From Dehalococcoidia bacterium (GTDB lineage Bacteria; Chloroflexota; Dehalococcoidia; Lucifugimonadales; UBA3495): DNA of 64,000 bases. The notes beneath the pieces are model-generated. The model had not been told where the DNA came from and made no database searches. It saw only the letters and a list, made by a program, of their open reading frames with translations. Below, in pieces: positions 5,396 through 28,257 of the stretch. Within the stretch, counting starts at the first letter, position 1, and each line of letters starts with the position of its first letter. The stretch is taken from NCBI GenBank assembly GCA_022827095.1, contig JAJDTP010000011.1, forward strand, positions 1,230 through 65,229, read 5' to 3'. A program made the translations under genes and the position numbers.

Positions 5396-5941
5396 TCAGC
5401 CGACACGCTGATCCCGCAGGTGGTCAATAAGTAGCGAGAAATTGGGGCAGGCGTTGTAGACGGTGGTGAGGTTTAGTTGATTCAGTGGTGCCGCGGCATG
5501 GTTTGTCTTATTGTACGTGCCCTTACGACACTCGCGTGTTGCGTTGTGCAGTCCGTTGAGCACGTCCTGCCTAAGAATGTTTTCGATGTCCGGGTTGCGG
5601 GGTAGGGAGTTCACACGGAACCCACTGCCAAAATATCCTGTCAGGGTCTCTCGGTCTGCCAAAAACCAAGCCTCCATGAGTTGGACCATGAAAAAGGCAT
5701 GATTGTTGTGTCCGATTCGCCCCTTTACGCGGTCCACCAGTTGGGTCGACACCGTGCCTTCAGAGTCAATGAGCAACACTGAACCGGAACCTCTGGCGCA
5801 TCTCCTGATTGCGTCGTCGCCCGAACCGCAGGGTGTGACATCCAGAGCTACTGATCGCTGGTGGATCACATAGGCAGAGCGGCTCAGAAATGCCTGCATG
5901 GGGCCGCGAAGGTGTCTGCCGCCCTCCAGAAATATGTCCAT
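5396..5941 (-). CDS. DUF4276-family protein (possible TOPRIM-like partner of the upstream ATPase)
   Basis: 181 aa. IFLEGG, LLIDSEG, FFMVQLMEAWFLAD and the C-terminal CPNFSLLIDHL match my recollection of the DUF4276 consensus (VEG.tE, EfEALlfaD, CPhFd.wl..L). The start lies 6 nt after the ATPase stop. Confidence 0.7.
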   Translation of the reverse strand: MDIFLEGGRHLRGPMQAFLSRSAYVIHQRSVALDVTPCGSGDDAIRRCARGSGSVLLIDSEGTVSTQLVDRVKGRIGHNNHAFFMVQLMEAWFLADRETLTGYFGSGFRVNSLPRNPDIENILRQDVLNGLHNATRECRKGTYNKTNHAAAPLNQLNLTTVYNACPNFSLLIDHLRDQRVG

Positions 5942-5947
5942 TGGCGG

Positions 5948-7141
5948 CTAGCGTACCCCACGGACAGCGCCGGACATCCACGCGTCGCCAAGTGTCATGT
6001 TCTCCAACCAGCCCTCCAGCTTCTCCAGAGAGAGACGGTTGAACTGAGTTCCGTCTGCGCGATGGCGGTTTCGCTCGCATACCACCACGTAATCGAGGTC
6101 ATCGGAGAAGCGGTCAATCAACCAGGGTGAATGGGTGGTTACTATCAGTTGGGTTCGCTCCGACGCTCTTTTCAGCAGTTGAACCACCAGGTCCTGCGAG
6201 TCGGGGTGCATGGCAAGTTCCGGCTCCTCGATGCAGATGAGCGGCGGCGGGTTGGGATGGCACAGGATTGCGAGCAGGGCGATGAAGCGGATGGTTCCAT
6301 CAGACAATCGGGAGGCCGGCAGCGCGCTGGACATTCCGATTTCGTTAACGATCAACTCAATGGTGTTCCCGAAGATGCGTGGATGCAGGCTTTCGTAGGA
6401 CTCGTAGAAACGCTGGAGGTAGGATTCCAGGGACGGTTCCAGCCGGTGGCTGAGCAAATCGTTTACCACCAGGGCCAGGTTGCTGAAATCCTCCTCCAGA
6501 AAATTGGGATCGCCATCAGTGCGCTGGGGACGACGCACCGGGCTGTCGCGGCCAACATACCAATTGCGATAAACCTTTATCGCAGAGAGCATACGTGCGG
6601 TCTCGGTGATTGCAGGATAGTCAGCGTAACTGCGTATTTCACTCAAAACTGACTTACCACGTTCGACATCAACCGTTATGGGTTCGTCGCCAAACTCGGC
6701 AAGAGTGCGGTCAGGCCGTTTCGGCCAAAGCTGGGCCTGCGCGTTATCCGCTCGAAAAAAGGGATTAGCATAGGAATATTCGCGGTCCCGCGCCATCAGG
6801 TCGAGCCGTTCGTTTATGGAATGAACACGGTCGTTTTGTACGATAATTTTCAATTCGTACCCGAATGGACTTCCCGGATTGTCAAACCTGACCGCCACTT
6901 CGGCGATCTGGAAAGGTGTTTCCTCCCACCCGGTCCCTTTCCAAATCCAGTCGTCGGTAGGTCCGTTACTGCGCAAAAACCCGGCTATATCGCTGGGTAC
7001 CGCTTTCAGCAGTCCGATCACATCAATCAGGTTCGACTTGCCCGACCCGTTGGCGCCGATGAGCACGTTCAGCGGCTGAAGATCCAGCTTGGTGTCCTTA
7101 AATGACAGGATGTTTTTCAGGTGCAGCGATTTGATCAGCAT
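5948..7141 (-). CDS. AAA_15/AAA_21-type ABC ATPase (OLD/SMC-like), no fused nuclease
   Basis: Trimmed to Met 7141 (MLIKSLHLKN); the ORF-track start at 7450 runs antisense through the neighbouring gene. Motifs: Walker A GANGSGKSN, signature-like LSDGT, Walker B/D-loop LICIEEPELAMHP and H-loop TTHSP. Confidence 0.8.
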   Translation of the reverse strand: MLIKSLHLKNILSFKDTKLDLQPLNVLIGANGSGKSNLIDVIGLLKAVPSDIAGFLRSNGPTDDWIWKGTGWEETPFQIAEVAVRFDNPGSPFGYELKIIVQNDRVHSINERLDLMARDREYSYANPFFRADNAQAQLWPKRPDRTLAEFGDEPITVDVERGKSVLSEIRSYADYPAITETARMLSAIKVYRNWYVGRDSPVRRPQRTDGDPNFLEEDFSNLALVVNDLLSHRLEPSLESYLQRFYESYESLHPRIFGNTIELIVNEIGMSSALPASRLSDGTIRFIALLAILCHPNPPPLICIEEPELAMHPDSQDLVVQLLKRASERTQLIVTTHSPWLIDRFSDDLDYVVVCERNRHRADGTQFNRLSLEKLEGWLENMTLGDAWMSGAVRGVR

Positions 7142-7176
7142 GGCGGCCCCCGTTTCGAAGGCGCGGGGTCGGTGGG

Positions 7177-10285: not shown

Positions 10286-10308
10286 GGGGCGGGTTTGAAA
10301 CCCGCCCC
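10286..10308. terminator. perfect 9-bp GC hairpin (GGGGCGGGT-ttgaa-ACCCGCCCC), bidirectional terminator candidate
   Basis: The stem is read directly from the sequence. It lies between convergent genes ending at 10260 (+) and 10373 (-). The loop/stem design matches the hairpin at 11937-11959. Confidence 0.5.
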
Positions 10309-10372
10309 TGATCTTTACCATCGGATCTGAACGTAGCCTGACCTAAAGGCCATTTTTCAGACGTGAACGGCC

Positions 10373-10720
10373 TCACTCATCAAGTTCGTACTCATAAGCC
10401 CATCTATCCAGTGCCGCCAAGCCGGGTTCCGCATTATCCATTAGCTCCGGCAATATCTTGTCCAATACCGGGTCTTCAAGCACGAAGTCGCGCAGATTTT
10501 CCAGCGCCCGGCTGTAATCGCCTCGCTGCATGACGTTGAGGACACTGCTTCTCAACATGGCGATATAGTCATCCCGTCCCAGCATTTCAAGCAATTGAAT
10601 GGCGCGTAAAGTGAGTATATCCGCCACGTTTTGCCGGATCTGTAGCAAATCGGCTCTTACTTGAAGCCAATCCTCTCCATGTTCATCCGGACCTTCCGAT
10701 GGCGGCGGTCTATTTGTCAC
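10373..10720 (-). CDS. hypothetical protein (115 aa, helical, acidic)
   Basis: The ORF lies in the low-G+C islet. Its GTG start (10718-10720) overlaps the stop of a small upstream ORF within GTGACAAATAG. No family recognised. Confidence 0.45.
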   Translation of the reverse strand: MTNRPPPSEGPDEHGEDWLQVRADLLQIRQNVADILTLRAIQLLEMLGRDDYIAMLRSSVLNVMQRGDYSRALENLRDFVLEDPVLDKILPELMDNAEPGLAALDRWAYEYELDE

Positions 10721-10880
10721 TGGCCACTCCTATCCTCTTCGCGCGGATCTGCCTGATTTTAGCAATGAGCCGATCGTTTTCCTCGGCTTTTTCCTTACCT
10801 AGGGCTTCCAAACGTCGAATCTCCTCCGCGTGCTTGACCAACAGGGCGTCCATCTTGGGATCACCAGTCAAATTTGCCAC
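10710..10880 (-). CDS. small coiled-coil-like protein, 56 aa (not in the ORF track)
   Basis: GTG 10878-10880 is preceded by AAGGAGG with a 7-nt spacer. Translation: VANLTGDPKMDALLVKHAEEIRRLEALGKEKAEENDRLIAKIRQIRAKRIGVASDK. It is translationally coupled to 10373..10720. Confidence 0.35.
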   Translation of the reverse strand: MANLTGDPKMDALLVKHAEEIRRLEALGKEKAEENDRLIAKIRQIRAKRIGVASDK

Positions 10881-10904
10881 AACATCACCTCCTTTTGGTC
10901 ATCA

Positions 10905-10910
10905 ATTATA
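10905..10910 (-). promoter_or_regulatory. candidate -10 box (TATAAT on minus strand)
   Basis: A perfect TATAAT lies about 25 nt upstream of the GTG at 10880. No convincing -35 element was seen. Confidence 0.3.
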
Positions 10911-10986
10911 TTGGACCTAACCGCAAAAAAAGGACCCCTGCGGTGTCTTGGAAGTCTTGGTGTAATCAATAAATACGCTATAAATG

Positions 10987-11005
10987 CAAAACGTCTGCCG
11001 TTTTG
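10987..11005 (-). terminator. 7-bp hairpin CAAAACG-tctgc-CGTTTTG downstream of 11018..11332
   Basis: Read directly from the sequence. It splits the islet into two transcription units. Confidence 0.4.
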
Positions 11006-11017
11006 ATGAGATGGCAA

Positions 11018-11332
11018 CTACGGCCTTCCCATCGAATAGCGGTTCAGAATGCCCAAGTAAGCCCGCTGCCCTTCCACCGCGATGGCGGTGCGGTCAGCGA
11101 GGTATTCGGCCCAGACCGATTGAGTGAGCGCCGTCGCCTTGCTCGACGGGGAGTACGGGTTGGCCGGGTCCAGTCCTGCGAAAGCCTGGATCCGGGTGCC
11201 GATGGACTTGGAGCTGCGTTCCAGCGCGGCCGCCAAAGCGGCCACCTCGCGGCTATCGAGGGCGACCTTTCCGCGGTACAGGTGCAGTACCGCCAAGTCC
11301 TCGATACGGGTCCATTTGCGTGCGGGAGGCAT
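11018..11332 (-). CDS. hypothetical protein (104 aa)
   Basis: The N-terminus (KWTRIEDLAVLHLY) resembles, from memory, the N-terminal domain seen on some HNH/restriction-associated proteins. No catalytic motif is present. Confidence 0.4.
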   Translation of the reverse strand: MPPARKWTRIEDLAVLHLYRGKVALDSREVAALAAALERSSKSIGTRIQAFAGLDPANPYSPSSKATALTQSVWAEYLADRTAIAVEGQRAYLGILNRYSMGRP

Positions 11333-11392
11333 TTTGCAATCTTGCCGTCTATTCTCGATGCACTATCGTGAGTACCGTTCGGTGCTGACTAT

Positions 11393-11884
11393 CTATCGCT
11401 TGTGATGCAAAGGGCGGCGCAGTAACCGATTGAGTTCAGTTGCGCACTCTCGATGAGAGTCCTCTAGGATGTTTATTTCAAGTGCCAGCTTGGATTGGAA
11501 GTTACCTCTCTTGCTGAGATCCCACACTTTCCAATCTACGCCGTTAGTCGGTACGGCGTACCCACGTTTCATCCCTTCAGAGTATGCCAACAGTTGACGC
11601 TCATGGCTGACCCTGATGCCACTACTAGTCAGTTTTTTGGCCTCGATGATAATTGCCGGATCATCGTTGTTGTCGAGCAGAGCGTAATCGATACGCCCAA
11701 AATCGTTGTGTTCGTATTCCACTTCGACTTCAGTGACGTCCGATAAGTCCCAGCCCAAGGAAATGAGGATGGGGTCAATGGCAGCGTATCTCGTACATGT
11801 TTCATGGCGGCTGATGTATTCATGAAATTCTTCAACGTGGTCAGCGACTTGTTCAATGGCTTCCCTTACGTCTGAAACTGCCAT
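11393..11884 (-). CDS. stand-alone type I restriction enzyme HsdR N-terminal-like (PD-(D/E)xK) domain protein
   Basis: 163 aa. The motifs ETCTRYAAIDPILISLGWD, GRIDYALL, AIIIEAKK and VPTNGVDWKVW match the HSDR_N-type nuclease-fold pattern. No helicase, methylase or specificity gene lies nearby. Confidence 0.6.
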   Translation of the reverse strand: MAVSDVREAIEQVADHVEEFHEYISRHETCTRYAAIDPILISLGWDLSDVTEVEVEYEHNDFGRIDYALLDNNDDPAIIIEAKKLTSSGIRVSHERQLLAYSEGMKRGYAVPTNGVDWKVWDLSKRGNFQSKLALEINILEDSHRECATELNRLLRRPLHHKR

Positions 11885-11936
11885 TCGCTAGTCCTCGTCA
11901 TTTTTGAAAAGGGCACACAGGGAGATTTGACCGATA

Positions 11937-11959
11937 AGGGCGGATTTCAAATCCGCCCT
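11937..11959. terminator. perfect 10-bp hairpin (AGGGCGGATT-tca-AATCCGCCCT)
   Basis: It lies immediately downstream of the GMC gene stop (11978, minus strand). It is a sequence relative of the hairpin at 10286-10308. Confidence 0.5.
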
Positions 11960-11977
11960 TACCGGTGCGCTGCTACC

Positions 11978-24465: not shown

Positions 24466-26766
24466 GTGAAGATACAATCCGACGGTATGATCGAACTCCG
24501 CGATTACCAGCATGACCTGCTCCGGGAGGTGCAGAACGGGCTGGCCGCCGTGCCCAGTGCCCGGTTGATGCTGCAACTGCCCACCGGCGGCGGCAAAACC
24601 GTCATCGCCGGCGCGCTGCTGGCCGATTGGCTGCAAGGTGGGCGCAAAGCTGTCTGGCTCACCCACCGCAAGGAACTAGCCGAGCAGACCCGGCGGATGC
24701 TCACCGACGCCGGCGTCTCCGCCATCACCAACGTCAACTGGACGCCCGGCGAGGACGCTCCGGCCATGGCCGGCGGTGCGGTGATTCTCATGGCCCAGAC
24801 CGTGGGCCGGCGCACCGCCCGCCTACCCCGCCGTCATTCCGGACTTGATCCGGAATCCAAGGGTGGGGTGTGGAACCGCTACACCTCTGACGACCTGCTG
24901 GTCATTGACGAGGCCCACCACGCCGCTGCCGCCGGCTGGGAACGGGCGATGCAGCAGTGGCCCGGCCCCATCGTCGGCATGACGGCCACCCCCTGGCGGC
25001 TGTCCGAAAAGGAAGGGTTCGACCACCTCTTTGACGGCCTGCTCTGCGGCCCCCAGACCGCCGACTTGCAGGCCCTTGACGAGCCGGCCCTGTGCCAGGC
25101 GCAAGTTGTCATCCCGCCCCCGGAGCAGCGCATCGCCGGCGGCGCCGTTGACCGCACCGGCGACTACACCGAGGCTGGCATCGAGCAGGCCAACCGCGAC
25201 CGTCCCGACATTATGACCGCCGGCGCTCTGGCCTTCTGGCAAAAGCACGCCATCGACTCCGCGAACAATCAACGGCCTACCATCGCCTACGCCGTATCCG
25301 TTGACCACGCCCACAACCTGGCCGCCGTGTTCAACGAGGCCAGCGTACCGGCGGCCGTCATCCTGGGCGATACCAACCGGGAGGATCGTGACCGGGCCAT
25401 CGACGGTTTCCGTGACGGCAGCGTCAAAGTGCTGGTCAACGTGATCGTCGCCACCGAGGGGTTCGACCTGCCCGACGCATCCTGCATCATCATTGCCCGC
25501 CCCACCATGAGCCTGGCCCTGTACCTGCAAATGGTGGGCCGGGGTCTGCGCCCCAAACCCGACGGTGGTGACTGCATCCTGCTCGACCTGGCCGCCAACG
25601 CCGTGACCCACGGCCTGCCTGAGGACTACCGCGAATGGTCGCTGGAACCGCGCGGAACGCAAAAGTCTGGTGGTGATGCTCCTGTTGTAGTATGTCTGGA
25701 GTGTCAAACTGTATCACCGGCCGCCAGCCACAATTGTCGAAAATGCGGCTATGCCTTCGGCAAAGACTGCCCTCGCTGCGGACGATGGCGTTCGCATAGA
25801 CGGTGGCAATACGAAACTCACTGTGGCGACAGACACCAACTGGTTTGCGACTATTGCCACATTGACGCGCACATCCAAGCGCATCTGCCCGTCGCTCCAC
25901 CGCTGGATGCCCTGGTTGACCAATACGATCTGGAGGATGAAATGACGTTGCCGAGCGACGTTGAGATTGACGACGAATTGGCCACCGGATTGCTGGCTTT
26001 GTTCAAAGCGTTGCTCGATCAGGAACGGCAGAACGTTGCTGGCGCTGACTACGCACGACGGAACGAACTGCGCTTGTTTATTGAAATGCGTGAGGCGGAA
26101 TTGGGGGATGACGACGAACTGGATACGCTGTTCGGCAAATACATCGCCACCCTGCCCGAAACGGAACGTCCAGACAGCCGAGCGCAAGAAAGCCGTATGT
26201 TCGGCGAATGGGAGGACAATCTCCAGTCAGAATTGACCAGTTGGAAATATGAATTGTCTGAACTGGAAAGCCGTGCCGTTGACAAACAGGCGATTTTCAA
26301 CAGCACGTGGAGTAAGGCGGCATACCTGCTGCGTCGCGCCGCCGAAAGTGAAGAGTTAATGCCTGACTTGCAAGCAATCGACGAGCGATCTGGCCGCAGC
26401 GTTGTTGCTGTGGCAGCTCAAGACGTCGATGGAACGCCCAAGCGTTTTTACATCGGCCCCAATCGCAACGGCACATTCGCAGAATGCGACGTTTACAGCA
26501 GGGACAGAATTATCGTCTTATCAGGCTCAACAGCCACTAAACGCAAACTCAATCAGCATTATTGGAGATACCAAAGGCGGAAAGATCAACTGATAGTGGA
26601 CGGCGTGTTAGTTGACGACGGGCAACTGTACAAATTTGCGGAAGATTACGAATTCAGTTCTACTACTCCCATTGGGGCTATCATATTGGGGAACACTGGT
26701 GTTGGACATGGAAAGGATCATCTGAAAGACGCCGGCGGCATCACTTTTAGGCACTACTTCCCGTAG
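24466..26766 (+). CDS. SF2 (DEAH, Res-III/RadD-like) helicase fused to two zinc ribbons, a coiled-coil linker and a DUF4357-like C-terminal domain
   Basis: 766 aa. Helicase motifs: I LPTGGGKT, II VIDEAHH, III GMTATP, VI QMVGRGLR. Zinc-ribbon cysteines: CLEC..CRKC and CPRC..CDYC (aa 410-464). An acidic helical region spans aa 480-640. The tail (IIVLSGSTA ... LIVDGVL ... YKFAEDYEFSS ... AIILG) resembles DUF4357 from memory. Confidence 0.85.
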   Translation: MKIQSDGMIELRDYQHDLLREVQNGLAAVPSARLMLQLPTGGGKTVIAGALLADWLQGGRKAVWLTHRKELAEQTRRMLTDAGVSAITNVNWTPGEDAPAMAGGAVILMAQTVGRRTARLPRRHSGLDPESKGGVWNRYTSDDLLVIDEAHHAAAAGWERAMQQWPGPIVGMTATPWRLSEKEGFDHLFDGLLCGPQTADLQALDEPALCQAQVVIPPPEQRIAGGAVDRTGDYTEAGIEQANRDRPDIMTAGALAFWQKHAIDSANNQRPTIAYAVSVDHAHNLAAVFNEASVPAAVILGDTNREDRDRAIDGFRDGSVKVLVNVIVATEGFDLPDASCIIIARPTMSLALYLQMVGRGLRPKPDGGDCILLDLAANAVTHGLPEDYREWSLEPRGTQKSGGDAPVVVCLECQTVSPAASHNCRKCGYAFGKDCPRCGRWRSHRRWQYETHCGDRHQLVCDYCHIDAHIQAHLPVAPPLDALVDQYDLEDEMTLPSDVEIDDELATGLLALFKALLDQERQNVAGADYARRNELRLFIEMREAELGDDDELDTLFGKYIATLPETERPDSRAQESRMFGEWEDNLQSELTSWKYELSELESRAVDKQAIFNSTWSKAAYLLRRAAESEELMPDLQAIDERSGRSVVAVAAQDVDGTPKRFYIGPNRNGTFAECDVYSRDRIIVLSGSTATKRKLNQHYWRYQRRKDQLIVDGVLVDDGQLYKFAEDYEFSSTTPIGAIILGNTGVGHGKDHLKDAGGITFRHYFP
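24833..24860. repeat. REP-like hairpin repeat, family 1, copy inside the helicase ORF
   Basis: GTCATTCCGGA-cttga-TCCGGAATCCAA with an 8-bp stem. It encodes RRHSGLDPESKG between helicase motifs I and II. The 10-nt flanks are identical to the copy at 21761-21787. Confidence 0.5.
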
Positions 26767-26952
26767 TGATGACAAATCTCGACTTACCCACCACAACCTA
26801 GAGACAGCCATTCGGCGGGCAGCCGGCGTTTTAACCGCCTTGCCAGCAGAGCCGACCGTACTTGGCTTGGCGGTGCAAAGCCGTATCAACTCACGAGTCG
26901 CAACGGTATAAAATATCCTCACACTTCCCATGCTCCGTAAGGAGGCGCTGTC

Positions 26953-27279
26953 ATGCCCCACTGCTCACAAGGCGAACTACTGGACCGGCTCGCCCACCTC
27001 GTCAAGACCGACCTGCAAGACCAATTCAAAGGTTCCTATGAAATCGGACCCGTGGCGGCTGACCTCCGGCATGACTTCATCTACGAAAGCCCGTACTTCA
27101 GGATCCTGGTTGGATACCGCGGCCAGGACCGGCGACCCGACCCTGCGATCACGGTAGGTATTCCATACCGGCTCCGGCGCGAGCTCGATGAGCTGGGCAT
27201 ATCCTGTTTGTTCACCAGCCTCGTGCCGGAATGCGAATGGGACCATACTGCAGAGGTGATGCACCTTGAACGGCGCTGA
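26953..27279 (+). CDS. hypothetical protein (108 aa), first gene of a three-gene overlapping cassette
   Basis: There is a strong SD (AAGGAGG, 7-nt spacer) and a TATAAA box about 40 nt upstream. No nucleotidyltransferase or other motif was recognised. It overlaps the next gene by 14 nt. Confidence 0.45.
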   Translation: MPHCSQGELLDRLAHLVKTDLQDQFKGSYEIGPVAADLRHDFIYESPYFRILVGYRGQDRRPDPAITVGIPYRLRRELDELGISCLFTSLVPECEWDHTAEVMHLERR

Positions 27280-27727
27280 CCTCATAGACAACGCAAGGCG
27301 GAACGCCAATTTCCCGCAACCTACCGAAGCCGACCTGAAGCGCGCCATCAGCGCCGCTTATTACGCCATGTTCACTGCTCTGGCCGAATCATGTGCCGAC
27401 ACGTTGGTGGGTCAATCGCCAAATGCGCGAAACGCCCGTGAGTGGGTCCTCACTTTCAGGGCGCTCCAGCACGGATACGCCCGCCAACAGTTCGAGCGCC
27501 GGGAAGTGAATCTGTACTCTCCGGCCATCGTCTCGTTCGCTAGAACGTTCACAACGACGCAGGCGATGCGACACGAGGCCGATTACAATCCCGTTTCCCA
27601 ATTTACGCAGCGCCAGGCGAATGACATCATTGACCAAGCCGAGTACGCCATTGACCAATTCATGGCTGCCAGCGAAGACGAAAGGCGACTGTTCGCTGCT
27701 TACGTGCTGATGAGGAATCGATTATGA
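27266..27727 (+). CDS. HEPN-like domain protein (153 aa)
   Basis: TTG start with GAGGTGA upstream. AISAAYYAMFTALAE and RHEADYNPVSQFTQRQANDIIDQAEYAIDQF fit the PF05168-type HEPN pattern (sR.YYA.f ... R..aDY). A canonical Rx4-6H motif is not evident. Confidence 0.55.
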   Translation: MNGADLIDNARRNANFPQPTEADLKRAISAAYYAMFTALAESCADTLVGQSPNARNAREWVLTFRALQHGYARQQFERREVNLYSPAIVSFARTFTTTQAMRHEADYNPVSQFTQRQANDIIDQAEYAIDQFMAASEDERRLFAAYVLMRNRL

Positions 27728-28005
27728 CCGACCAGCAAAAAGCCGAACTAGCCGCCCTGGCCGCGATGTCCGACGATGAGATTGACACCAGCGACATACC
27801 CGAAGTCCCTATAGACTGGTCAAAAGCCCGGCGCGGCGTGTTTTACCGGCTGACCAAGCAGCAGATTACGCTGGATTTGGACGCCGACATAATCGCCTGG
27901 TTCAAGTCCAATGCCAAAACCGACATTGACTGCCAGACTGGCATCAATCAAGTACTGCGGGAGCACGTCCGGCGCGAAAAGGCCCGTATTGCCGCTTCTT
28001 CCTGA
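27724..28005 (+). CDS. brnA: BrnA-family (RHH/CopG-like) antitoxin
   Basis: 93 aa. AMSDDEIDTSDIPEV, ITLDLDADIIAWFKS and TGINQVLREHV match the BrnA_antitoxin pattern. ATGA overlap with the upstream gene. No BrnT (DUF497) gene is present. Confidence 0.75.
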   Translation: MTDQQKAELAALAAMSDDEIDTSDIPEVPIDWSKARRGVFYRLTKQQITLDLDADIIAWFKSNAKTDIDCQTGINQVLREHVRREKARIAASS

Positions 28006-28257
28006 TTCCGTTCTTCCTTCCCCGCGCCGCCCTGCCCAGAAAATCCGGTAAGCCGGCTGATCCTGCATATCCCGGTAAAGGTCTCCTCCTCGCGGCCGGC
28101 AACCGGGTCCGGGTGAGGGCCGTGACGCGCGTGGAGCCACCGTCATCGACGGCATCATGGGTCACATTGCTGCTGATTATTGCCTCGTTCAGCAACGATT
28201 TGCCACCGGCGGCCCTTGTCTCTACAATTCGTGCTTACTGATAGGAGGGAAAATGTC

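Follow-up and report, generated by a model that had tools for sequence, protein, structure and literature searches.

A probable recombination-driven defense or addiction hotspot with two small cargo slots around a core gene in a sponge-associated SAR202/Dehalococcoidia chromosome

When four small genes lie between two related GC-rich hairpins in a bacterial chromosome, did they arrive together as one island, or do genes and hairpins have separate histories? The question is raised by positions 10286 to 11959 of a 64,000-nucleotide stretch of Dehalococcoidia bacterium DNA (GenBank assembly GCA_022827095.1, contig JAJDTP010000011.1), hereafter the window, in which four minus-strand open reading frames (ORFs), here called A to D, stand between a VOC-family gene and a GMC-family oxidoreductase gene. 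An earlier note, made from the sequence alone, had read the interval as a single horizontally acquired mini-island bordered by the hairpins, either a minimal defense or addiction module or a decayed restriction-modification remnant. The elements on which it built were recovered here, namely the related hairpins (about 17 of 21 core bases shared, by eye), the four ORFs with their sizes, the 11-nt overlap of the genes for the 56-aa and 115-aa proteins C and D, and the absence of methylase and helicase genes inside the interval. Comparison with relatives favors another arrangement of these elements, which we hold to be probable: a small accessory-gene hotspot of a sponge-associated SAR202/Dehalococcoidia chromosome, in which two cargo slots lie around the core gene B and recombination drives the turnover of defense or addiction cargo.

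Relatives were collected as B-encoding loci from 52 species-level genomes, all of them metagenome-assembled genomes (MAGs) labeled Dehalococcoidia, SAR202 or Chloroflexota, with sponge hosts indicated by several genome names and by one Geodia barretti record. Gene occupancy was mapped by tblastn over 57 loci and read against a neighbor-joining tree of the flanking proteins; counts from the survey of slots and hairpins are given per 51 genomes. The order GMC, B, VOC, amidohydrolase was found in nearly all 52 genomes, the exceptions being one locus cut upstream of GMC (L032) and two without a VOC or amidohydrolase match (L054 and L057), and the layout common to the clade is GMC oxidoreductase gene, hairpin, B, hairpin, VOC gene. 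Identity is 91-98% for the GMC gene in 51 of these 52 relatives and 91-100% for the VOC gene in 50 of them; the G+C content at third codon positions (GC3) is 0.89 for GMC, 0.885 for VOC and 0.81 for the flanking amidohydrolase gene. B itself sits between GMC and VOC in 52 of 52 genomes, 73-98% identical, with a host-like GC3 of 0.80 and a ratio of nonsynonymous to synonymous polymorphism (pN/pS) of 0.10. B is a vertically inherited core gene, whose uniform composition and conserved context in relatives form the very pattern that the earlier note had set against an acquired islet. That note had also grouped A and B as one unit, a grouping that fails as a unit of acquisition, since only two of the 52 genomes have A as well as B.

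The variable part of the locus is confined to two gaps, slot 1 between the GMC gene and B (from hairpin 1 to B) and slot 2 between B and the VOC gene (from B to hairpin 2). Both slots are empty in about 20 genomes, where the gaps measure only about 55 nt and 80 nt. Of 51 genomes, only three (that of the window, L002 and L003) carry A in slot 1, and five have there a 2.3-kb pair consisting of an SLFN_AlbA_2/HATPase_c_4 gene and a ParA-like (AAA_31) gene. Slot 2 is filled by C-D in about 20 genomes and, in about seven, by a DUF4365 gene paired with a gene for a 390-aa protein, which together correspond to the PADLOC candidate system PDC-M02 (PDC-M02A, 4e-54; PDC-M02B, 5e-98); a passage of one published report (PMC10810196) describes DUF4365 as a nuclease effector in SPARDA systems. 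Different small cassettes occupy slot 2 in other genomes, and the cargo per slot amounts to 0.5-2.3 kb. These occupancy states are scattered on the flank-protein tree, with sister genomes alternating between C-D, PDC-M02 and an empty slot, A is missing from the nearest relatives of every genome that carries it, and its occurrence is independent of that of C-D. One core-flanked position thus holds differing defense-type cargo among relatives, which is what defines a chromosomal defense or accessory hotspot, and the presence of PDC-M02 and of Schlafen/AlbA_2-ParA-like cargo at the same positions elsewhere makes the "defense or addiction" flavor given to the interval a reasonable one. Of the earlier proposal of a horizontally acquired defense or addiction module, what stands is that A, C and D are patchy, incongruent with the tree and housed in slots that elsewhere take candidate defense cargo; what falls is the inclusion of B, which was not acquired.

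As a separate observation, a pair consisting of a HigB-like toxin and an HTH_3 antitoxin lies immediately upstream of the GMC gene in L061 (2045-2656), a position just outside the hotspot that takes small addiction cassettes.

The attraction of a single acquired island of about 1.6 kb, holding all four genes and with the hairpins as its insertion borders, was that the hairpins bracket low-G+C genes exactly and resemble each other, and that the lowest G+C of the 64-kb window falls here. The low G+C proved discontinuous, however: A, C and D do have low GC3 (0.53-0.61), but the segment around B (about 10950-11400) has a G+C of 0.60-0.62. The hairpins are moreover found in genomes with two empty slots, in which one GGGGCG...CGCCCC palindrome comes after the GMC stop and a second between B and the VOC stop. 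By a strict perfect-stem criterion, 29 of 51 genomes have a related hairpin behind the GMC stop, at a distance of 11-23 nt, and 34 of 51 have one 20-27 nt away from the VOC stop, empty sites included in both cases. The loci, 614 kb in all, contain 61 GGGGCG..CGCCCC hairpins, 48 of them inside the GMC-VOC interval. Their presence at empty sites and their concentration in this interval indicate that the hairpins are native to the core locus and bracket B, the cargo lying between each hairpin and B. We also looked for the hairpins at another low-G+C cassette of the window, the HEC-01 pair described further below, and no GC hairpins flank it. With B a core gene in 52 genomes and the A and C-D cargo occurring independently, the genes of the interval do not behave as a unit, and we give their arrival as one island next to no credence.

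Perfect hairpins with stems of at least 8 bp are rare in the window (seven at a stem G+C of at least 0.6, a filter below which hairpin 1 falls with its stem G+C of 0.5), and this rarity argues that their placement here is not due to chance; what accounts for it is the core locus, not the cargo. Both hairpins were recovered as inverted repeats with arms extendable to 18 nt. Hairpin 2 was flagged as terminator-like on both strands by a terminator scan and is a native bidirectional terminator-like element, not a cargo border. Hairpin 1 has no T-run, was not flagged by the scan, and is for lack of the T-run not a canonical intrinsic terminator. The idea that the hairpins belong to a repetitive extragenic palindromic (REP) family, or mark islet borders in general, was tried and rejected, since about 590 kb outside the interval hold only about 13 copies, and the HEC-01 cassette has none. 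The two hairpins that flank B are identical in L022 and L031, and within some genomes the identity spans 28-29 nt. Across the loci generally (L006-L043), the hairpins fall into two sequence types, GGGGCGAATGATCATTCGCCCC and GGGGCGGGTTTGAAACCCGCCCC, which swap between positions and genomes; this swapping suggests gene conversion or a low-copy palindromic repeat family.

Table 1. Features of the interval and its core flanks (positions in the window; strand cells of hairpins are empty).
Feature	Coordinates	Strand	Description
VOC/glyoxalase-family core gene, 131 aa	9865..10260	+	Right-hand conserved flank; Pfam Glyoxalase on orthologues
GC-rich palindromic hairpin 2, GGGGCGGGT-ttgaa-ACCCGCCCC	10286..10308		Between the convergent VOC gene and B-side genes
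D, 115 aa	10373..10720	-	Acidic (pI about 4.5) helical protein; second gene of the slot-2 cargo operon
C, 56 aa	10710..10880	-	Basic helical protein; first gene of the slot-2 operon
C-D expression signals	10886..10910	-	Shine-Dalgarno AAGGAGGTG (10886-10894) and TATAAT box (10905-10910)
7-bp hairpin CAAAACG-tctgc-CGTTTTG (CAAAACGGCAGACGTTTTG)	10987..11005		Just downstream of B, left edge of the slot-2 insertion
B, 104 aa	11018..11332	-	Basic (pI 9.9) all-helical core protein; stand-alone homologue of the N-terminal domain of HNH_2-type endonucleases
A, 163 aa	11393..11884	-	Predicted stand-alone PD-(D/E)xK endonuclease of the HSDR_N family; slot-1 cargo
GC-rich palindromic hairpin 1, AGGGCGGATT-tca-AATCCGCCCT	11937..11959, extendable to 11930-11966		17 nt downstream of the GMC stop
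GMC-family oxidoreductase core gene, 516 aa	11978..13528	-	Left-hand conserved flank; internal start MKYDYIVIGAG; Pfam GMC_oxred_N/C on orthologues

How the slots are filled and emptied was approached through composition and divergence. The GC3 of the cargo is low, 0.5-0.6 against 0.8-0.9 for the core, and A, C and D, atypical in composition, are accessory genes. The divergence of B follows that of the flanks (Spearman rho 0.69), whereas that of D is uncoupled from it (rho 0.09): L024 and L028 are 0.5% apart in their flanks and 44% apart in D, and L018 and L027 are 9.9% apart in their flanks and only 3.8% apart in D. At the cargo edges we found no tRNA, no Rfam RNA, no att-like or target-site repeat and no flanking direct repeat, and no ORF in the GMC-VOC interval or just beside it encodes a recombinase, nor was one called in the 16-kb syntenic loci of L002 and L003. 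The absence of integrase, tRNA, att-like repeat and target duplication, together with alleles shuffled against near-identical flanks, makes exchange by homologous recombination the most likely explanation. In this proposed mechanism, cargo would be gained, lost and swapped through the conserved flanking genes, and the hairpins would stay with GMC and VOC as their 3' structures.

The slot-1 gene A is where the restriction-like character of the locus was first seen, and the assignment of its product to the HsdR N-terminal nuclease pattern stood up to profile searches, with Pfam scores of 38.2 bits for HSDR_N (cut-off 25.1) and 30.4 bits for HSDR_N_2 (cut-off 25), a match to phrog_4225 "endonuclease" in PHROGs (2.4e-16), and matches to several PADLOC nuclease models. 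Its 35 homologues are mostly stand-alone proteins of 163-206 aa, some reaching about 280 aa, and in an alignment of 30 of them the catalytic D...ExK residues are invariant (D66 in RIDYALL, E81 and K83 in IIEAKK). The family profile could be aligned with the HsdR structure 3h1t across the catalytic core. The product of A thus appears to be an active-looking nuclease with an intact catalytic site, its fold being predicted from sequence-profile homology only, and it adds a member to an already known family of stand-alone restriction-like nucleases. In the classification of PD-(D/E)xK proteins, HSDR_N, HSDR_N_2, COG2810 and COG4748 are grouped together, with predicted type IV restriction endonucleases among them (PMC3424549).

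These data bear directly on the second proposal of the earlier note, according to which A and B would be non-functional leftovers of larger HsdR and HNH enzymes. Both proteins are indeed domain-sized, and no methylase, specificity subunit or helicase is adjacent to them. The stand-alone format of the A family, with full length and the D...ExK residues kept across 30 homologues, is however not that of fragments, and pN/pS is low despite saturated synonymous sites, 0.15-0.23 for A (GC3 0.53) and 0.10 for B, with a range of 0.10-0.35 across the four genes. B has been conserved across 52 species-level genomes, and the 60-nt spacers hold no frameshifted relics of missing domains. All four genes are under purifying selection and none is a decaying fragment; decay of a restriction-modification system is an explanation that we find barely credible.

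A most likely encodes, to judge from its family, a Mg2+-dependent DNA endonuclease with a restriction-like defense role. None of the adjacent genes (the ORFs GMC, B, C, D and VOC were considered) encodes a methylase, specificity subunit or helicase, and since no methylase accompanies it, the enzyme would be modification-dependent (type IV-like) or otherwise held in check; the lack of an adjacent methylase is consistent with a predicted type IV enzyme. With neither motor nor HsdM or HsdS, a translocating type I mechanism is closed to it. In each of the three A-bearing lineages, B follows A immediately on the same strand, after only 3 nt in L002; A would share a transcript with B and might be helped by the B protein. 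Elsewhere, too, genes of the A family stand alone: two are followed by a gene for a 135-aa HNH protein, among resolvase and AAA_15/21 genes, one locus has tandem paralogues, and one gene stands by itself. In a phage and in a Thermomicrobium megaplasmid, an A-like domain stands at the N-terminus of larger proteins (296-359 aa). In L059 (5118-6618), a sponge-metagenome Chloroflexota contig, two tandem A-family paralogues of 195 and 205 aa, 43% identical and with a charged insertion of about 45 aa, adjoin MerR-GrpE-DnaK genes.

A less martial role for the cargo has also to be weighed, in which A would be a housekeeping or repair nuclease (resolvase-like or RecB-like), C and D ordinary lineage-specific small proteins, and the locus simply a tolerant intergenic site with no part in defense or addiction. 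The PD-(D/E)xK fold is used in many repair functions (PMC3424549), there is no direct evidence of defense, and scans of viral contigs for relatives of A, D and B-like proteins found none. A housekeeping gene would nevertheless hardly be confined to 3 of 51 genomes, missing from their nearest relatives and low in GC3, and the best family matches of A are restriction and Cas4-type nucleases, PADLOC candidates and a phage endonuclease family. The slots also hold PDC-M02 and Schlafen-type cargo, and D alleles are shuffled between lineages. We regard this reading as quite unlikely.

Protein B gave no Pfam match, and its resemblance to N-terminal domains of HNH-associated proteins, remarked on in the earlier note, was borne out by a PADLOC HNH model (E 2e-6), of which only positions 25-121 of 286 are covered, and by a profile search with B over 1.84 billion representatives, which returned 176 relatives. 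A C-terminal HNH_2 domain (PF13391) was found in 31 of the 39 longer relatives scanned (about 200-410 aa), and B is by this measure a stand-alone version of their N-terminal domain; B itself lacks the HNH catalytic domain PF13391 in a Pfam scan and is not an HNH_2 endonuclease. Its AlphaFold2 (AF2) model has five helices and a mean predicted local distance difference test (pLDDT) score of 92, and no significant match to it was found in the PDB. Where slot 1 is empty (for instance in L006, 5945-6001), the ATG of B comes about 15-20 nt past the GMC hairpin, a space too short for a promoter and without a clear Shine-Dalgarno sequence. B is probably expressed by read-through from GMC, or from slot-1 cargo where present, and the 7-bp hairpin just behind it may be its weak terminator.

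At three of four loci with a distant stand-alone B-like gene, a nuclease gene immediately precedes it (GmrSD_N, a 315-aa HNH protein and a 135-aa HNH protein), and a metagenome scan for further B-like loci gave one locus, leaving the tally at three of four. These contexts, the fusion of the B domain to HNH_2 in the longer relatives, the invariable position of A upstream of B, and the lack of a DNA-binding domain in A could be taken to mean that A and B form a split nuclease, in which A would supply the catalytic PD-(D/E)xK domain and B would recognize DNA or regulate in trans, slot 1 being a "nuclease slot" upstream of a resident partner. B is retained under strong constraint in the 50 of 52 genomes that lack A, though, and A-family genes elsewhere have a small HNH gene, a paralogue or nothing beside them and no B-like neighbor. 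Slot 1 also takes the non-nuclease Schlafen/ParA pair, any insertion into a spacer of 15-20 nt lands beside B, and the distant contexts number only four. A split nuclease is accordingly one of the less improbable alternatives in our estimate, yet still an unlikely one. A search for partner families shared by the two proteins was negative: the 135-aa HNH and 226-aa neighbors of a B-like gene (L067) differ from those of A-like genes (L005 and L058), with only a weak similarity in the HNH motif. In L065 (1653-6309), a distant B-like gene is clustered with genes for DUF6339, a Vsr endonuclease and a 631-aa GmrSD_N protein, which resembles a restriction or modification-sensing neighborhood.

A bolder extension would make hairpin-B-hairpin a docking platform, with B as the shared DNA-recognition or regulatory subunit for whichever effector has landed (A, DUF4365/PDC-M02 or Schlafen) and the twin palindromes promoting cassette exchange. 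If true, this would be a modular immunity locus of the type "one adaptor, swappable effectors"; we consider it a long shot.

The cargo of slot 2 presents itself as an operon. The 11-nt overlap of C and D suggests translational coupling. The TATAAT box and the hairpin between the cargo and B, both pointed out in the earlier note, can be read in the sequence, and in an alignment of 20 regions upstream of C a TATAAT-like box and an AAGGAGG Shine-Dalgarno sequence are conserved; a simple sigma-70 scan did not flag the box as a canonical promoter, there being no good -35 element at 16-18 nt. The C ORF is conserved in 20 loci, pN/pS is 0.30 for C and 0.35 for D, the GC3 of D is 0.56, and distances in C and in D co-vary (rho 0.66). 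The conserved ORF pair, the conserved expression signals and the co-varying distances mark C-D as a unit. Neither protein has a match in Pfam, NCBIfam, PADLOC or PHROGs. The AF2 model of D is a helical bundle (pLDDT 78), for which no significant match was found in the PDB or BFVD. None of the 42 D homologues falls below 62% identity to D in the aligned part, and the D-bearing loci examined all belong to this lineage (Chloroflexota MAGs or the same sponge metagenome projects), with the pair always at this site. C-D is most likely, as far as location and architecture can tell, a two-component addiction or defense-type module of co-evolving proteins, one basic and one acidic.

In one ENA contig of 7,998,203 bp, two full copies of GMC-B-C-D-VOC-amidohydrolase (L061 and L062) carry D alleles of 93 and 115 aa; these are probably two related strains concatenated in the assembly and no true duplication.

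Several points weigh against a hotspot of defense or addiction cargo exchanged by recombination. The raised synonymous polymorphism of the cargo could partly reflect relaxed codon bias rather than older alleles, and three occurrences of A are too few to separate a history of loss only from one that includes gain. A has no cognate methylase, partner or specificity domain, so that its defense role is argued from family, composition and neighborhood. C and D match nothing in four hidden Markov model libraries or two structure libraries, and their "addiction/defense" label comes from location and gene architecture, that is, from guilt by location. An acidic D behind a basic C reverses the charges of many type II toxin-antitoxin pairs, and a pair seen at one locus in one lineage fits a lineage-specific polymorphic locus as well as a mobile module. 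With these points counted, the hotspot, with its two slots around B, remains the interpretation that we prefer.

Two further regions of the window were noted. A dip in G+C at 5396-7142 on the minus strand, 3 kb from the hotspot, contains genes for a 397-aa AAA_15/21 ATPase and a 181-aa DUF4276-like protein, which correspond to PADLOC HEC-01A (2.9e-117) and HEC-01B (7.5e-35), and a HEC-01 pair occupies the equivalent place in the relative L062. Together with the HigB/HTH_3 pair of L061, this cassette makes the surroundings of the hotspot rich in defense genes, which counts in favor of the hotspot interpretation. The G+C is also low (0.52-0.59) at 24466-28200, a stretch that includes the C-terminal half of a ResIII/Helicase_C protein of 766 aa, with a double zinc ribbon and a weak match to DUF4357, and then unannotatable ORFs of 123 and 153 aa; this may be another accessory or defense region.

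The locus affords a view at base-pair resolution of a very small recombination-driven defense or accessory hotspot between metabolic core genes in uncultured sponge symbionts, a group that passages of two papers (PMC5649159, PMC5099237) describe as rich in defense genes. It corrects an attractive reading, that of a hairpin-bounded island, and overturns no current concept. Three leads follow from it. A is a near-minimal stand-alone HsdR-N nuclease and as such a candidate compact restriction-like enzyme; C-D is a lineage-specific, allele-shuffled cassette without known relatives and a candidate new addiction or defense pair; and B is a conserved stand-alone copy of an uncharacterized HNH_2 N-domain, whose recurrent adjacency to nucleases hints at a role as partner.

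Each component can be set against known systems. With the stand-alone HSDR_N/HSDR_N_2 proteins (PF04313, PF13588; COG2810 "predicted type IV restriction endonuclease"; group 48 in PMC3424549), A shares the TR..IDPIL helix, the D...ExK residues and the TNG..W strand, and like other such members it lacks a helicase motor; it is close to a bare catalytic core, whereas its phage and Thermomicrobium relatives carry extra C-terminal regions. Its nuclease domain is likewise homologous to that of type I HsdR (for example EcoR124I and the PDB 3h1t family), but there is no ResIII/Helicase_C motor and no HsdM or HsdS nearby, so that A does not form a type I restriction-modification system. The HNH_2 family (PF13391, COG3440) includes HphI- and BbrI-type restriction enzymes, the N-terminal recognition domains of which are unresolved (PMC5714182). 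B is homologous to the N-terminal non-catalytic region of many HNH_2 proteins of 230-330 aa and differs from them as a conserved core protein that stands alone, with no HNH domain.

Like type II toxin-antitoxin operons, C-D consists of two small overlapping genes with their own promoter-like box, accessory, fast-evolving, co-varying and located in a defense-type slot. Unlike them, it shows no homology to any type II toxin-antitoxin family, the charges are inverted (the upstream protein is basic and the downstream one acidic), and the pair was never seen on mobile elements or at other loci. Small cargo genes beside palindromic hairpins also recall integron cassettes and REP-associated sites. 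An integron-like array has an integrase and attC-type sites. Here no integrase is present, the short and perfectly palindromic hairpins do not resemble attC, the cargo has no hairpin of its own, C-D brings its own promoter-like signals, and the hairpins remain with the core genes at empty sites.

The closest likeness is to chromosomal defense hotspots, with which the locus shares fixed core flanks, alternative defense-type cassettes, cargo of low G+C, an occupancy incongruent with phylogeny and the lack of a dedicated integrase. It is a hotspot of fairly ordinary defense type, set apart by its tiny slots, by there being two of them split by the resident core gene B, by the related palindromic hairpins that frame them, and by its host, an uncultured sponge-symbiont lineage of Chloroflexota.

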